A stretch of 64,000 nucleotides of DNA from an uncultured Planctomycetaceae bacterium (GCA_963815195.1 CAWFGE010000024.1:65540-129539); one strand, 5' to 3'. Positions 39,001 to 45,000 are shown, counted from the first letter of the stretch. A program made the numbers.

Positions 39001-42000
39001 GGCCGAGGGGGACGCGCCCGCGTCCGCAGCGGCGGAAACAAGCGAACGGCTGATCTGGGAATGGGATCCGCGGCATGGCAGCATTCATCTCGAGCCCTAC
39101 CAGCAAAAACGCACGTCGAGCGGCTGGACCAAGGGCCGCAAAGTCTCGCTGGCCCGGCTTTATGCCGGGTATAACGAACCGGATTTCGCTTTTGTCACGG
39201 ACGAGGACCGGGCGATTTGCCGCTCTTTGGAGATGCACTCCGAACGGAACTACTACGGCTATTCGGAAACTTACGTTGACTTTCAGGATCTGCGCGCGGC
39301 GCGGGCTCTCGTGGGGCACCCGCGGATTTTTCCCGCGGGGGATCGGGAGAATCCGTTCGAGATCGTCGAGCAGTCGCCGAAGCTTACCATCGTCGAGGAC
39401 GACACAAAGCACATCCGCGTGTCGCTCGATCCCTCGCCCAAGCGAAACGACGAAGCCTTCCGCGTGGTCAAGGACGGGCCCCACCGCGTGGCGATCGTGT
39501 TTTTCAGTGATCGGCATATGAAGCTGCACCAGATTCTGGGCGGGGAACTCAAAGTGCCCGCCAAGGCGGCCGCGCAGGTCGTCCAGGCGATCCAGCCGGT
39601 CACGTCGCTGGTCACGGTGCAATCGGAGATCGGGGGCGAGGGCCTTGCCGGGGAACGCGTCGATGCCGACGCCCGGCCGCACGTGCATTTGCTGCCCTAT
39701 CAAAGCGGGCTGCGGATCGAGTTCTTCATCCGGCCGTTCGGCGAAGCGGGCCCATTTTGCCGGCCGGGACAGGGCGGGGCGAACGTGTTCGCCAACATCG
39801 ACGGCCGGGCCCTGACCGCGCGGCGGGATCTGGCCGAGGAACAGAAGCGTCTCGACGAGTTGATCGCGGCCTGCCCGGACATCGCCGCCCGGCTGGAGCA
39901 GGGCGAATCGATCTACTTCCCCACGCCGATTGAGGCCCTGGAGGCGCTGCTTCAATTGGAGGACCTGTTCGCCAAGGACCGGATCGTGATGCATTGGCCG
40001 CAAGGCCGAACGTTGAACCTGGCCGGCCGGGCGGCGGCGAAGCAGTTCCGGCTGCAAATTCGCAAGGACCGCGACTGGTTCGCCGCGTCGGGCGACCTGA
40101 AAGTGGACCCGTCGCTGTCGCTCGATCTCATGCAGTTGATCGATCTCGTCGAGGCGAGCCCCGGGCGGTTCGTCCAGCTCGATGACGGGCGGTTCCTCGC
40201 CCTCACCGAGCAGCTCCGCGACCGGATCGAGGAACTCGCCGCGTACGGTGATCGGCGGGGCAAACAGAACAAGCTGCGGTTTCCCCCGCGCGGGCCATCG
40301 CGCTCGAAGACTTGGGGGACTCGGTCACCCTCAAAGCGGACAAGACCTGGAAGGACTGGATCGGCCGGCTGCACAAGGCGTCGGAAGTCGAGCCGGAAGT
40401 GCCCTCGACGCTCCAGACCGAACTCCGCGACTATCAGCAGGAAGGCTTTTCGTGGCTGGCCCGGCTGGCGGCGTGGGGCATGGGCGGATGCCTCGCCGAC
40501 GACATGGGGCTCGGGAAAACCATCCAGGCGCTCGCCCTGCTTTTGGACCGCGCCGCCGGCGGCCCGGCGCTCGTTGTCGCTCCGACCTCCGTGGCTTTCA
40601 ACTGGAAGAACGAAGTCCTGCAATTTGCTCCAACGTTAAATGCCCATCTCTTCGGAGAGGAAGACCGGGCCGAGGTCATCAAGAACCTGGGCCCGCGGGA
40701 TCTCGTGATTTGCAGCTACGGGCTCTTGCACACCGAGTCCAAACGGCTCCAAGCGCAAGCCTGGCACACGGTGGTCCTCGACGAAGCCCAGGCGATCAAG
40801 AACATGGCCACGCTCCGCTCGCAGGCCGCCAAGCGACTGACTGCCGACTTCCGGCTGATCATGACCGGCACGCCTTTGGAAAATCATCTGGGCGAGTTGT
40901 GGAACCTGTTCGAATTCATCAACCCCGGGCTGTTGGGCTCGCTCGAAAAATTTCAGCAGCGGTTCGCCGGTCCGATCGAACGCGACGGCTCGCGCGAAGC
41001 GCGTCGGCGGCTGAAAAAGCTGATTCAGCCGTTTCTCCTCCGCCGGACCAAGTCGCAGGTGCTCACGGAACTGCCCTCGCGCACCGAAGTCACGCTGACG
41101 GTCGAACTCAGCGACGAAGAGGCGGCGCTTTACGAAGCCTTCCGGCAGCGGGCGCTCAAGAAATTCGCCGGCGCCGGCGACGCCAGGTCGCAGCATCTGC
41201 AGATCCTCGCCGAGATCATGAAATTGCGGCGGGCCTGCTGCCATCCCCGGCTCGTGCTCGGCGACTCGGAGATTCGCGGATCGAAGCTGGCGTTGTTCTC
41301 GGAGACCTTGGACGAGATTCTCGATAACCATCACAAGGTGCTCGTCTTCAGCCAGTTTGTCGACCACCTGGCGATTCTCCGCGAGGAACTGGACCGCAAA
41401 GGCGTCTCCTACCAGTATCTCGACGGCAGCACGCCCGCCCGCCAGCGGAAGCAGCGCGTGGAAGCCTTCCAGGCGGGCGAAGGCGACGTGTTTCTGATCA
41501 GCCTCAAAGCCGGCGGCCTGGGCCTCAACCTGACGGCGGCCGACTATGTGATCCACATGGACCCCTGGTGGAACCCGGCCGTCGAGGACCAGGCCTCCGA
41601 CCGCGCCCACCGCCTGGGCCAACAGCGGCCGGTGACGATTTACCGCTTCATCACGAAAGGCACGATCGAGGAACGCATCACAAAGCTCCACGCCAGCAAA
41701 CGCGACCTGGCCGACAGCCTCCTGGAAGGCGCCGACGTCACCGGCAAACTCTCCGCGGACGAATTGCTCAAACTCATCCGCGAATAACCGCCGACTGAGC
41801 GGATCCGGCCAGTTCGCGGGAAGTCGCATCGGGCGACTTTGTGACCAAATACCAACACTACCAAAGCCCGTGGACGCCGAAGAACGGGGCCAATGTGAAT
41901 CCGTGCTTTTGCGCCATCGCCCAGATTTCCTCGATTCGCTCGGGAACGATGTTTCCGCGGCCTTGGGAAAACGGCTCGTAGCGGCCCTCGAGTGCCAAGA

Positions 42001-45000
42001 GTCCCGCTTCCAGCATGCAGCCGTGCACAATGTTCGGTTGGGGGAAACCGTAGTAGGTCAACCGCAGGTCGGGTCCGGACAGAATTTCGCCCCGAACACA
42101 GCCCAGGCCGCCGAAGAACAACCGCCGACTTGACGGCGCGGAGGTTCCCGCGGCGATGTTTCTGGGATAAGCCGCATCGCAGATCAAGGCGTCCGCCTTG
42201 AAATCCGAGAGGGGAAGTTCTGGCCCCGGCAGACTCGCCGCGGCAAGGACGATGTCCCCCATCGGCAGGAACGCGCGGAGATCGGTGGAGCACTCGACGG
42301 CCGCCGGGCTGCGTTTCAGTTCCGCGGCCAGGATTTCCAAACGAGCCGGGTTTCGCGCGACGAGAAGCAATCGGCCCGCCGTCTGTGCCAAATACCGAGC
42401 GCAGCCGCTCCCAACATCGCCGGTCGCTCCCACAATCAATACGCTGGACCGGCTGAGATCCCGGCCCGTCCGACGAGCGGCCGCTTCGAGGCCCTTGACA
42501 ATTAAGGCGGCCGTCAGCGTGTTGCCTGTGGTGAGCGCGGTCTTCACTCCATCGAGCGAGACGTTCTCCGATTCGAGCGCGATCGAGGTGAATCCGCCCA
42601 GAGCCGCGATCCCTGCCCCTTCCCTCTCGGCGGCGGCCACAGCGGAGCGGGTCTTCTCGACGATCGTTTTGAAAGACCGTGCCGCGAGCTGATCCGGCGT
42701 GATGAAGGTTTCGATATAGGCCCCGCGCGCTTCGTGGCCCAGACGCGATTGAATCTTGAACCGCGACACCGTCCGCGGGGGAATCCACGAAACGAATCTC
42801 GTCCACCTCGGAATCCGGCACCGCGGGGAGATGCGGGCGCGAAGTTCGCGGAGCAGGCGCGCGAGCTTCCCGCCGCAATCGACGTGGCCGATCATGGCGA
42901 AATCTACACGGGCAGATTGGCGATCCATTGGAGCGTCTCTTCCCCCGGGAGTCCCAAACGGTCCAACGTCTGCAAATAGAAATTCAAAGCCCGCCCGCGA
43001 ACCGCCCCGATCTCCAGATGCACATGGCCCAGGGAATGTTTGACGCATTCGCCGCTGCACAATCCGCAATGCCCGTGGGGATCCTCGCGGGCCACCATCT
43101 CGGCGAGCACCGTCATCACGGCGAGATGCACCTCGTGGACTTTCCGCGTGAAGGCGGCGGGATCCTTGAGGTGTTCCGCTTCCAGAAAGGCAATCACGTG
43201 TTCCAGGTGGCCTTTTTCTTCCTCGGCAATCGCCCGGAAGACCCGGGCCAAACCGGCGGGGGCGGCGTCGGCGACCGTTTCATAGATCGAGACCGCGAAC
43301 GACTCCAGCATGAGTTCCTGAATCAACAGACAGGCCGTGAGGTCGCCCCGGTCCACGTAATCCAGAAACGCCTCGCGGATCCGCCGCCAGTACGGCGCCG
43401 CAAGATCGACCACCACGTCCACGCCCAGGTCGTCGGCGGCTTTCTGAAACGCGAGCGCATGGGTCTTTTCGCTCTCGGCGTGCTCGACCGCTTCCACCTT
43501 TTCCTCGACGGTCTCGACCAAAGCGACCAGCGAGGCGAAATTCTGCATGCCGACGACTTCCCCCGTGACGGCCTGCGAAAGGATGTCGGCATAGACGCTC
43601 CGCTGCTCTCGGGTCAATTGGTCCTGGGATTCTGAGAAGGGCATGATCGACTCCGTCTGGGGGAACCGGCCGAGACCGGGCGCGGGTTCATTCGCCCTTG
43701 AGGGAAAAAAACGTGTAATGAAATCCCGAATCATCCATGATGGCATACCCGCCCGAAGGCGTGAAGAAGCGTTTGATGGCGTCGAACTCCGGCAGTTTTC
43801 TGCCGTCGAGCGCTTGAGTCAGTCCGGCGAACAGAGTGGTCGTGAATTTCCCCTCGAGGATTCCGGGGAGCCGGCCCGTTTTCAGCGCCTGGAACAACAG
43901 CCGCTTATGCTCCGGGGTGTGGAAAGAGATCAAGCTGCACTCGGCGGGGAAATGTGCGGCCACGCGTTGGAAGTCCGGGCTCTCGGCCAATCCCGGCCCC
44001 TCGTGATTCAGGACTTTCTCCAAAAGCTCCACATGCGTCGCCAGAAACACATGCGTGTCCGTAACGGTGAAAGCGACTTGGCCCACAGGCACCGGCTGAT
44101 CGGGGCCGAGGCGTTTTTCCAACTGGCCGCCATAGTCCCTCAGAATGATCGTCTTCCCGCCGGGCGTTTTGCGCTTCGTCGTGATCGGACTCGCCTTTTC
44201 CGTTGCCTGGAGGAGCAACAATTGCAGCGTCTTAACGGACGTGTCGCCTCCTGGGATGTGTCGACGTTCCCAGGCCAGGAGCATCCGCGGGACGGCAAAA
44301 CCCCGGCTTTCCGTGAGATCGGTGACGATCGTCAGCCTCTCGCCCAGGGCATCCAGGGAACTCAACTCCGGCAAGTGTCTTAAAAGCGCAATCAATTCCC
44401 GCGTCTGCGTGTGCTTCCAGCGGAAGGTGCAATAACTGGTGATGTCCGCGGGGACCCACGGTTCCGGCTGCAAAGGCCCCGGCGGAAAATCGAGATAGTG
44501 GAACAATGCCGGCCGGTGCGTCGTGTGGACGACCACGTGGCCTACCGTGTCAAATTGATCCTGTGCGATCGAAAAAGAGAATCCGCCACCTTGAAAAAGC
44601 TGCGCTCCCAAAAAGCCATCCGCGAGGTTGAACTGGGGATTCGAATACTTGGCTTTCAGGAACTTCCACAGTTGCGCGAGGTCGATAAAAATCTCGAAAT
44701 CCCCCGCACCGCCAGTCGACTTACGAAACTCCTTAAGCCGCGGATTGTCCGCCAAAAACGCTGCGGGCGGCTTCTCCAGCCAGGTGTGGAGTTTCTCGGC
44801 CTCGTCGGGATTCTCCGCACCAAATAGCACGTGATTGTCCGTAATCGCCAGATGCATCTGGTCCGCGGCGCCGGTTCGATCAACGTCCTTAAGCATCCGA
44901 GAGATGCGGGCCCGGCTGCCGGGGATGTCGGAAAGAAAATACCACACCGGCTTCATTTCGCGAAGTTGCTTCTCAGCATCCCTCTCAGCATCCAATTCCT

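Follow-up and report, generated by a model that had tools for sequence, protein, structure and literature searches.

An ADO-like di-iron oxygenase and an AAR-like reductase form a predicted fatty-aldehyde operon in an uncultured Planctomycetaceae bacterium

Two adjacent genes, one for a ferritin-fold di-iron oxygenase resembling cyanobacterial aldehyde-deformylating oxygenase (ADO) and one for a reductase resembling acyl-ACP reductase (AAR), were analyzed in a 64,000-nt stretch of DNA, hereafter the window, from an uncultured Planctomycetaceae bacterium (GCA_963815195.1, CAWFGE010000024.1:65540-129539); all coordinates are window positions. We give about an even chance to the reading that the two genes constitute one operon that makes, then consumes, a fatty aldehyde, for which an alkane is the likely predicted product. 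One new element is that the ADO-like protein lies outside the ADO equivalog, in its own clade inside a wider non-cyanobacterial ADO-like radiation.

Both open reading frames were found on the minus strand at the coordinates given in the initial annotation. The ADO-like gene occupies 42904..43644 (246 aa; ATG at 43644, stop at 42904-42906), and a Shine-Dalgarno-like GGAG tetramer can be read at 43651..43654, 7 nt 5' of its ATG. The AAR-like gene, encoding a 345-aa NAD(P)H-dependent acyl-thioester reductase, occupies 41858..42895. The 8-bp distance reported for the pair is evident from the sequence, in which nucleotides 42896..42903 of the same strand separate the ADO-like stop from the AAR-like ATG; a spacing so tight suggests that both genes are on one transcript. 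A search of 41500-46400 turned up no sigma-70-like promoter. Longer starts exist for both frames (280 aa from 43746 and 403 aa from a TTG at 43069, respectively). The shorter ones were preferred because most of 120 listed relatives of the ADO-like protein have 246-247 aa, and because the AAR-like family alignment begins at residue 1-2 and shows no variation at G3 and H4. Upstream, 43 nt before the ADO-like gene, a minus-strand gene at 43688..46069 encodes a membrane-anchored protein of 793 aa without a match in the Pfam search. This gene may be co-transcribed with the ADO-like gene, and its membership of the system is uncertain: a homologue precedes the ADO-like gene in 1 of 89 loci, L012, the locus of highest identity (73%) to the window's ADO-like protein. 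The gene has a paralogue on contig C20, and same-genus genomes gave matches of 24-28% only. Atlas scores for the 793-aa protein reach 0.82, a lead only.

The ADO-like protein matched PF11266 with 58.4 bits (cut-off 28), and all 20 matches in a PDB sequence search at E<=10 were ADOs (best, 1.3e-12). Identity as an ADO equivalog was rejected, since the score on TIGR04059 was 58.8 bits, far under the cut-off of 222.65; an ADO passing that model (P0228, 389 bits) is 28% identical to the protein over 149 aa. The ADO fold proposed previously was borne out by an AlphaFold2 model built with 40 sequences (pLDDT 94.4, pTM 0.91). Foldseek ranks 1-26 were all cyanobacterial ADOs (TMq 0.76-0.81), followed by PaaA as the first non-ADO (E 8.2e-4), and VIA-align against 48,161 chains gave ADOs at Z 27.1 and 25.7 and the next chain at Z 20.0. 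The protein thus shares the ferritin-like eight-helix fold of cyanobacterial ADO (PF11266, TIGR04059, EC 4.1.99.5; PDB 4rc5, 2oc5, 5ux2), with an rmsd of 2.2 Å over 217 residues at Z 27.1. Three ferritin-like di-iron proteins from outside cyanobacteria, 6d9f (Kitasatospora setae), 5uxg (Sulfolobus tokodaii) and 8fhc (gamma proteobacterium), are described in their depositors' titles as "with aldehyde deformylating oxidase activity", but their similarity to the model is much lower (Z 19.3, 16.6 and 13.1). In the tree, support for the ADO-like clade as sister of cyanobacterial ADO was weak (SH-aLRT 58), which counts against the operon reading. Our search again returned 210 relatives at E<=1e-3, whereas the 303 stretches in species genomes counted earlier were not reproduced, a single-sequence scan yielding 9. 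Our literature search found family members mentioned at annotation level only and no biochemistry, in line with the initial description of a family automatically labelled 'fatty aldehyde decarbonylase' and without biochemical tests.

Residue conservation was counted over 113 aligned relatives of the ADO-like protein. The six di-iron ligands of ADO (E29, E59, H62, E114, E143 and H146) were each present in 113/113, as were C193, C196 and C200, so the ligands and the Cys motif are as invariant as had been claimed. H55, E110 and H149 are further invariants (113/113), one helical turn from the ligands, at positions occupied in cyanobacterial ADOs by G/S/A, C/S/G and Y/F. Given these invariant residues beside the ligands, the metal site may differ from that of cyanobacterial ADO, and, judging from sequence, the chemistry may differ as well. 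Invariant as well are Q109 and Y121, which correspond to Q110 and Y122 of cyanobacterial ADO; according to the accessible text of PMC5356278, the latter two lie near the di-iron site, and in their variants kcat falls by about half to two thirds. Arginine 62 of the cyanobacterial enzyme (R62A loses 91% of kcat) has no conserved counterpart: the residue is T61 here and G, A, S, R or T across the family. The helix-4 motif is shared, reading CLLIQELMLESFAVSIY in the ADO-like protein and CLLIQCILNESFAISAY in an ADO.

A further departure from cyanobacterial ADO is a Cys-rich loop between helices 6 and 7, residues 184-200, encoded at 43045..43095 (minus strand) and defined by DSSP and alignment; it holds C193, C196 and C200, with D188 just before them. 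The loop is non-helical by DSSP on the model (block pLDDT 88-90) and is directly followed by a short extra helix, residues 201-208. Compared with a TIGR04059-passing ADO, E187-C200 form a 14-residue insertion just before the helix-7 equivalent, and three aligned cyanobacterial ADOs are without it. The C-x2-C-x3-C motif was found in 120 of 120 relatives among those listed, so its invariance as a family mark holds; its peculiarity does not, since variants of the insert occur across all four non-cyanobacterial ADO-like clades, three of them other than this one. In the accessible text of PMC7089970, AAR docks on helix 7 of cyanobacterial ADO, whose tunnel has its mouth between helices 7 and 8. The acidic residues that bind AAR there align with I212-R218 (IGAVRGR), which has no acidic residue, the clade carrying basic residues in this helix; the cyanobacterial docking mode can therefore not be assumed. 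Judging only from its position and conservation, the loop is a putative binding site for a metal or an Fe-S centre. Its place would be beside the tunnel mouth and the partner surface, where it would either admit electrons or keep the docking lid in shape.

A ferritin-like di-iron site with a built-in Cys-ligated redox metal centre has a precedent in rubrerythrin, and the Rubrerythrin Pfam model does match residues 113-160 (33.5 bits, cut-off 22.8). Together with weak matches to encapsulin ferritin-like cargo and an AhpC/TSA redoxin gene near the ADO-like gene in 4 of 89 loci (between both genes in L039, L061 and L073; in L077 at the contig end, immediately behind the ADO-like gene), this match is what speaks for a protein that is no substrate oxygenase but a rubrerythrin- or ferritin-like handler of peroxide or iron with a redox-active Cys site, linked to the reductase only incidentally or in a regulatory way. 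We consider this highly improbable. The Pfam match spans only the common di-iron helix pair; rubrerythrin is a peroxidase with a separate C-terminal CxxC...CxxC domain of the rubredoxin type, whereas the ADO-like protein has no such domain and carries a single three-Cys loop in an ADO fold. The whole-protein fold is that of ADO (Z 27) and not of four-helix ferritins (Z about 13-14), and the association with the AAR-like gene described below is not incidental.

The AAR-like identity assigned to the partner (g07662 in the initial annotation) was substantiated. It scored 161.5 bits on TIGR04058 and aligned over its full length with S. elongatus AAR 6jzq (E 3e-42, residues 32-334 with 31-335). Like cyanobacterial AAR (TIGR04058, EC 1.2.1.80; 6jzq, 6jzu), it has a Gly-rich NADPH motif and the catalytic Cys: G156, G159, D160, G162 and C293 are invariant in 26/26 family sequences, and 'hgCmlE' stands opposite 'faCfaE', aligning C293 (codon at 42017..42019, minus strand) with C294, the catalytic residue of S. 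elongatus AAR according to the accessible text of PMC7089970. A basic helix is partly kept (R73, K76, K81 and R83), but E80, E90 and E92 fall in this helix, which is basic in S. elongatus AAR. The N-terminal domain of PigE, from the MAP branch of prodigiosin synthesis, belongs to the same reductase family (NF053554, 103.5 bits; 4ppm, E 7.9e-17); that domain is fused to an aminotransferase, whereas the AAR-like protein is free-standing and linked to a di-iron oxygenase. As on TIGR04059 for its neighbor, the score is under the equivalog cut-off (449.7), and that both proteins miss their cut-offs argues against the operon reading.

Linkage of the two genes was assessed in 89 loci, 9 from species genomes and 80 from metagenomes. 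An AAR-like gene was present in 75, always downstream on the same strand (75/75). In the 55 loci offering 1300 nt of room or more it was never absent, and the 14 loci without it offer only 36-1188 nt, so the near-obligate linkage in ado-then-aar order previously described is upheld. After correction, the median gap is 38 nt, with 69 of 75 at or below 70 nt and 4 above 700 nt. Among 401 Acidobacteriota genomes, the sole four AAR-like matches above 500 bits come from the four core ADO-like carriers, the next-best match scoring 177 bits.

In the proposed pathway, the AAR-like enzyme would take a long-chain acyl-ACP or acyl-CoA, form an acyl-Cys293 thioester and, with NAD(P)H as reductant, convert it into the aldehyde, a step for which its strong homology speaks. 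The ADO-fold oxygenase would then use O2 and reducing equivalents to remove C1, as its fold, ligands and gene linkage suggest, giving a C(n-1) product; as in the cyanobacterial reaction, this is most likely an alkane or alkene, with formate released. The chain would thus be channelled from acyl-thioester through aldehyde to C(n-1) product. Deformylation to hydrocarbons, as claimed initially, is in keeping with the fold, the six ligands and the AAR-like partner, but fold and ligands by themselves do not suffice to deduce the reaction, since BioE, about 20% identical to ADO, has other chemistry. The accessible text of PMC12704756, from which the comparison with BioE is made by description only, presents this Weeksellaceae biotin-synthesis enzyme as a non-cyanobacterial ferritin-like di-iron oxygenase that acts on long fatty chains, cleaves C14-C18 acyl-CoA/ACP to pimeloyl-CoA/ACP and has cyanobacterial ADO as its closest characterized relative. 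In the same text, unlike the ADO-like gene, BioE lies near bio genes with BioL and no AAR partner.

Reversed, BioE-type order is accordingly conceivable, in which the oxygenase first oxidizes, desaturates or cleaves the ACP- or CoA-bound chain and reduction of the modified thioester by the AAR-like enzyme follows, leaving the aldehyde as pathway product. Besides the BioE precedent, the ADO-like gene is the first of the two, the surroundings of the metal site are unlike those of cyanobacterial ADO, and the acidic docking residues are not retained. We nevertheless find this order quite unlikely. PF11266 is matched above cut-off, and the helix-4 motif is common to the family and cyanobacterial ADO. 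When 401 Bacteroidota genomes were scanned with PF11266 (E<=1e-3), only two matches resulted, both of the ADO-like family (G1243 and a truncated copy in G455), which would make BioE remoter from ADO than this family is, if Weeksellaceae were sampled. In cyanobacteria, too, the gene order is ado then aar, although AAR acts first. In addition, a different ADO-like clade is paired with a second, unrelated type of aldehyde-forming reductase (NAD_binding_4, 80 bits), directly upstream at L105 and L106.

The pair had been described as a two-gene cassette. Its linkage holds, but it usually does not stand alone: after de-replication, 21 of 29 lineages have a GNAT and/or DUF3419 (BtaA-like) gene beside it, and where the sequence extends 1300 nt or more in both directions (35 loci), MMPL occurs in 8 and FA_desaturase in 7. 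In a Bacteroidota genome (L109), GNAT, ADO-like, AAR-like and DUF3419 genes are consecutive. Such company is not accounted for by an inert alkane as end product, which weighs against the operon reading in its alkane form. The di-iron enzyme could instead take the aldehyde to another end: hydroxyl rebound, for instance, would give a C(n-1) alcohol, and an alkene or an acid are further candidates. Within the common four-gene operon, the DUF3419/BtaA-like protein would add a SAM-derived aminocarboxypropyl group, GNAT would acylate the amine and MMPL would export a hitherto undescribed amino-acid-headed lipid, the window's copy making the first building block only. The neighbors favor this scheme, an alkane would presumably offer a transferase no usable group, and H55, E110 and H149, so close to the metal, permit changed reactivity. 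GNAT/DUF3419 loci are also basal in the outgroup-rooted tree, a placement rooted through long outgroup branches. We judge it unlikely but worth serious consideration, as its chemistry is conjecture and at least three lineages hold the pair without GNAT or DUF3419. In the window the pair stands bare, and representatives of DUF3419, GNAT and desaturase found no homologue in its genome (tblastn, E 1e-6); since both genes are nevertheless intact, the pair must be useful alone.

Returning to the pair as an aldehyde-making and aldehyde-consuming unit, its distribution is narrow. It was detected in 4 of 401 Acidobacteriota, 2 of 401 Bacteroidota and, in its own phylum, 1 of 401 sampled genomes, the window's genome itself. 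Acidobacteriota and Bacteroidota do carry it, as stated initially, but "spread over" phyla overstates an occurrence that is rare and patchy. Unlike cyanobacterial ADO, the family occurs sporadically in heterotrophs and mostly within the GNAT/DUF3419 operon. PF11266 was found in 0/60 relatives and 0/400 other genomes of the phylum, with the S. elongatus control recovered, which points to lateral gain of the pair in this lineage. Composition correlated with the genome at r 0.992 for the contig and 0.953 for the cassette (random 5-kb windows, 0.938 +/- 0.044), and the pair would have been matched to its host after arrival.

Considering the GNAT and/or DUF3419 company, often with MMPL and desaturase, the usual end product of the family may be a lipid and not a free alkane. 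The copy in this bacterium would be a stripped two-gene version of the GNAT / ADO-like / AAR-like / DUF3419 lipid operon, and as such it presumably functions in its own right.

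The two genes lie on the minus strand of the window, the aldehyde-deformylating oxygenase (ADO)-like gene (P0001, 246 aa) at 42904-43644 and the acyl-ACP reductase (AAR)-like gene (P0002, 345 aa) at 41858-42895, with an intergenic gap of 8 nt and a GGAG motif 7 nt ahead of the P0001 ATG. The gene of a 793-aa protein (43688-46069, minus strand) stops 43 nt upstream of P0001 on the same strand. Pfam gave no match for this protein, in which an N-terminal membrane anchor is accompanied by a linker rich in Pro, Glu, and Lys, and its Atlas score of 0.82 for DUF3352 serves as a lead only. 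It has a paralogue with 21-26% identity in the same genome (G000, contig C20:181521-183171), same-genus genomes match it at 24-28% only, and L012, one of the loci compared, also carries a gene of this type upstream of its ADO-like gene. Immediately upstream of the region are genes for a small PEMT/ICMT-type membrane methyltransferase (46396-46830, plus strand) and a 723-aa DUF4062 protein (47546-49717, plus strand); GC falls to 0.52 from ~47500. From the downstream side, a SNF2-type helicase gene (38390-41787, plus strand), apparently split across two frames, converges on the pair. A 749-aa ORF at 38390-40639 lacks a Pfam match, and its final ~120 residues, from ~40270, appear to be out of frame; the SNF2/Helicase_C part is encoded by a 491-aa ORF (40312-41787) in a frame that is not open before 40252. 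Either a frameshift or a mistake of assembly near 40250-40320 would account for the split. Neither a sigma-70-like promoter nor a convincing terminator could be detected around the pair: terminator-like sites there were not more frequent than in shuffles (8 vs 6.1 ± 2.6), and the 70-nt spacer 3' of the AAR-like gene folded no better than shuffles (z -0.20). Rfam returned nothing at E≤0.1 over 40000-48000. One soil DNA run contained 0.22 of the sampled words, and no RNA run was among the matches listed.

P0001 passed the Pfam model PF11266 (Ald_deCOase; 58.4 bits, cut-off 28) and failed the NCBIfam ADO equivalog TIGR04059 (58.8 bits, cut-off 222.65); over 149 aa it shared 28% identity with P0228, a protein that passes TIGR04059. 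Its PDB sequence matches were ADOs in 20 of 20 cases (best E, 1.3e-12). With an AlphaFold2 model built from 40 relatives (pLDDT 94.4), Foldseek placed cyanobacterial ADOs at all of ranks 1-26 (TMq 0.76-0.81), and VIA-align scored ADOs at Z 27.1 and 25.7 and the next chain at Z 20.0. P0001 is thereby predicted to have the ferritin-like eight-helix ADO fold. Its Rubrerythrin Pfam match was confined to residues 113-160, a rubredoxin-like CxxC...CxxC C-terminal domain was absent, a single C-x2-C-x3-C loop being the only such element, and the C-terminal 87 residues alone had no match among PDB sequences at E≤10. The PDB titles of the distant non-cyanobacterial ferritin-like proteins 6d9f, 5uxg, and 8fhc ascribe ADO activity to them. 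No report of enzyme activity and no other study of any family member was found in the literature searched.

Cyanobacterial ADO (cADO) and P0001 are alike in the predicted fold, the six metal ligands, and the adjoining AAR-type gene, whereas they differ in an insertion, in the invariant residues H55, E110, and H149, in the R62 counterpart, and in the acidic residues of helix 7, the last two not being kept. The ligand positions of the ADO di-iron site (E, ExxH, E, ExxH) correspond to E29, E59, H62, E114, E143, and H146, each present in 113/113 relatives. In cADO-1593, passages of PMC5356278 name Y39, R62, Q110, Y122, and D143 as second-shell residues near the di-iron site and report that the R62A variant decreases kcat by 91%. 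With a numbering offset inferred from the alignment, Q109 and Y121 are the counterparts of Q110 and Y122 and are invariant in the 113 relatives; E142 is kept in 111 of them, and at position 36 either F (65) or Y (48) occurs. Conservation does not extend to the R62 counterpart, which is T61 in P0001 and G, A, S, R, or T across the family. H55, E110, and H149, each one helical turn from the ligands, are invariant in the 113 relatives, whereas the same positions in cyanobacterial ADOs are occupied by small or aromatic residues.

By sequence, the partner surface also appears to depart from the cyanobacterial one. As described in PMC7089970 for the AAR-ADO complex (PDB 6jzu), the acidic helix 7 of ADO pairs with a basic AAR helix, R73-H91; AAR docks on helix 7, the mouth of the tunnel lies between helices 7 and 8, and its entrance is covered by W178. 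In P0001, the segment aligned with the acidic helix-7 residues, IGAVRGR (212-218), contains no acidic residue, E211 standing directly before it. In the AAR-like counterpart of the basic helix, R73, K76, K81, and R83 are kept and E80, E90, and E92 are gained. The sequences thus suggest that the acidic-helix-7/basic-helix pairing of the cyanobacterial complex is not conserved in this pair.

The insertion relative to ADO comprises E187-C200, between helix 6 and the helix-7 equivalent; in the model, residues 184-200 form a non-helical loop followed by a short extra helix (201-208). C193, C196, and C200 were found in 120/120 relatives listed and D188 in 112 of 113, K202 is conserved too, and C193 is preceded by H (73), D (26), E (4), or another residue. 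Given that the insert starts a few residues past the W178 counterpart in the sequence alignment, we infer that it would sit at the tunnel mouth and on the partner surface. Most likely the loop would be a binding site for a metal or an Fe-S centre: three invariant Cys and a conserved Asp fall in a stretch of 13 residues, four-Cys versions occur in sister clades, and the model places the loop with confidence. It may act as an electron carrier or may only shape the entrance. Cyanobacterial ADO has no built-in electron entry and relies on external ferredoxin.

A profile search of 1.84 billion representatives yielded 209 proteins at E≤1e-3, and the full-length ADO-like proteins sorted into five clades. 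The core clade, to which P0001 belongs, has C-x2-C-x3-C; three further clades have C-x3-C-x2-C-x6-C, C-x3-C-x(5-6)-C plus a C-terminal CC, and C-x3-C-x2-C-x3-C, and three aligned members of the cyanobacterial ADO clade have no insert at all. Since the four non-cyanobacterial clades have it and the three aligned cyanobacterial ADOs do not, the Cys insert is characteristic of the non-cyanobacterial radiation. When 32 rows were placed in a tree, the core, C-x3-C-x2-C-x3-C, and cyanobacterial clades had 100% support each and the other two 87% and 94%, with 58% support for the deep branching order among the five. Some members of the clade ending in CC are fused to an N-terminal methyltransferase; fusions to a Methyltransf_31/UbiE-type domain were seen in P0150, P0180, P0185, and P0232 (561-605 aa), and three full-length fused proteins terminate in Cys-Cys. 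A candidate natural ADO-AAR fusion, P0171 (538 aa), was rejected; its middle is unalignable and it resembles a frameshifted read-through.

The AAR-like protein aligned over residues 32-334 with the AAR of S. elongatus (E 3e-42). On the AAR equivalog TIGR04058 it scored 161.5 bits, short of the cut-off of 449.7; the PigE model gave 103.5 bits, the matched part being the N-terminal region of PigE. C293, the aligned counterpart of the catalytic C294 in S. elongatus AAR, is invariant in 26/26 relatives, as are G156, G159, D160, and G162 of the Gly-rich nucleotide motif VGATGDVGS; a Gly-rich dinucleotide-binding motif of AAR is named in a passage of PMC7089970. This homology is strong enough to commit to P0002 as an aldehyde-forming thioester reductase. 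Distant AAR-like matches (64-177 bits) without an ADO-like partner were observed in 13 of 401 Acidobacteriota genomes, in open frames of mostly 700-930 aa; L115-L120 are distant AAR-like loci of this phylum (e.g., L117:199-2676 and L116:499-2598). In both such proteins examined (699-825 aa), the N-terminal 330-430 aa have no Pfam match, and a PigE-like fusion was rejected, the AAR-like half being C-terminal.

Linkage of the two genes was assessed in a set of 89 loci, of which species genomes contributed 9 and metagenomes 80. An AAR-like gene was present in 75 of the 89, always on the same strand and downstream of the ADO-like gene, with a median gap of 38 nt. The gene is present at every one of the 55 loci where the room is 1300 nt or more, and the 14 loci that lack it have room of only 36-1188 nt. 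A gene is interposed between the two in four loci: a membrane-anchored AhpC/TSA redoxin in L039 (2126-2830), L061 (5683-6372), and L073 (1070-1876), and a B12-binding radical-SAM gene in L014 (7889-9457). In three others, the contig ends before any AAR-like gene and the ADO-like gene is followed by a membrane-anchored AhpC/TSA redoxin (L077:7718-8263), a B12-binding radical-SAM gene (L042:1713-2901), or a P450 gene (L015:1905-2696). The redoxin could remove peroxide formed when the di-iron site is uncoupled, or it could act as a reductant for the Cys loop. Among the 401 Acidobacteriota sampled, four AAR-like matches exceeded 500 bits, and they came from the very four genomes that carry a core ADO-like gene (one of which, G457, is flagged unpublished); the next match scored 177 bits. 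Two other Acidobacteriota genomes have an ADO-like gene of a different clade, which lacks the core Cys loop, directly preceded by a NAD_binding_4 reductase of an unrelated type. The three-gene rows L105:365-2829 and L106:818-3298 comprise this NAD_binding_4 gene (fatty-acyl/thioester reductase type), the ADO-like gene, and a gene for a 203-aa protein without a Pfam match. This neighbour independently supports that ADO-like proteins work with aldehyde-forming reductases.

Elsewhere the pair often stands in a lipid-type operon. Over 50 loci with long flanks, a DUF3419 (BtaA-like) gene was located downstream of the AAR-like gene in 20 and immediately after it (≤80 nt) in 17, and a GNAT gene of 350-400 aa directly upstream in 16. 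An MMPL gene was near the pair in 9 loci, a fatty-acid-desaturase-family gene in 8, and genes of a GntR/ABC-transporter set in 15. When the loci were de-replicated at 90% identity, a GNAT and/or DUF3419 gene was present in 21 of the 29 groups. In a tree rooted on the nearest clade, with long outgroup branches, the GNAT/DUF3419 loci were basal, the ABC-type loci were nested within them, and the window's clade formed a separate branch. Since representatives of DUF3419, GNAT, and the desaturase had no homologue in the window's genome, the copy studied here is a bare pair.

PF11266 was detected in 1 of 401 genomes of the window's phylum, namely the window's own, and in none of 60 relatives, which comprised 3 genomes from its genus, 33 from its family, and 24 from its class. 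Among Acidobacteriota it occurred in 6 of 401 genomes, 4 of these with the core clade, and among Bacteroidota in 2 of 401. Every genome scan recovered the S. elongatus control. Named records of the family come from Acidobacteriota (8 loci), Saprospiraceae (1 locus), and one 'Deltaproteobacteria' MAG, and the closest relatives of P0001 among the matches listed are P0003 (82% identity) and the protein of L012 (73%). Contig C24, which carries the pair, has a GC of 0.597 and a tetranucleotide r of 0.992 to the rest of the genome, with r 0.953 for the cassette windows. Given that the composition of contig and cassette matches the genome, mis-binning or contamination was rejected, and the pair is best read as a lateral acquisition since adapted to host composition. 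The genome also gave 75 DUF1559 matches vs 0 in 14 control genomes, consistent with a planctomycete; DUF1559 expansions are typical of Planctomycetota. A search for the empty site in same-genus genomes gave DNA matches to short SNF2 motifs only (67-81% identity).

Taken together, the AAR-like enzyme would reduce an acyl thioester to the aldehyde, and the di-iron protein would consume that aldehyde, a role suggested by its fold, its ligands, the helix-4 motif it shares, and the near-obligate linkage. Cleavage of C1 to give a C(n-1) hydrocarbon would be the most likely outcome. We put the whole chain from thioester through aldehyde to C(n-1) hydrocarbon at about an even chance, and rate the aldehyde hand-off above 'alkane'. 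A plain alkane as the product is called into question by the altered metal surroundings, by the lipid-operon context, and by the precedent of BioE, described in a passage of PMC12704756 as an ADO-like di-iron oxygenase that cleaves acyl-CoA/ACP. No bio genes adjoin the cassette in the window. A wider synthesis, which we hold to be rather improbable, would have the Cys loop, variants of which occur in all four non-cyanobacterial clades, bind an Fe-S or other redox metal at the tunnel mouth as a built-in electron entry, while the H55/E110/H149 site steers the aldehyde to the C(n-1) product; this product would be the tail of an undescribed amino-acid-headed lipid in the GNAT/ADO-like/AAR-like/DUF3419 operon, and cyanobacterial ADO would be a stripped-down offshoot of an older, more varied family.

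The ADO/AAR pathway is the textbook 'cyanobacteria-only' alkane route and a workhorse of biofuel engineering, in which the use of ADO is limited by very slow turnover and the need for an external reductant. A distinct natural branch, whose Cys-rich loop at the substrate entrance may bind a metal and whose metal site has altered surroundings, offers ready variants that can be screened for improved or changed activity. In metagenome surveys, genes for 'fatty aldehyde decarbonylase/ADO' in non-cyanobacterial bins were counted by annotation alone, as passages of PMC10176705 and PMC13488336 indicate, and passages of PMC13170169 describe only a search for such genes by KEGG number. If the enzymes of this branch make no hydrocarbons, annotation-based surveys over-count; if they do, soil heterotrophs would add to biogenic alkane pools. 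For the organism, the pair marks a laterally acquired accessory trait, found in none of 460 genome searches of its phylum, and for the family, the frequent four-gene operon hints at an undescribed lipid class.
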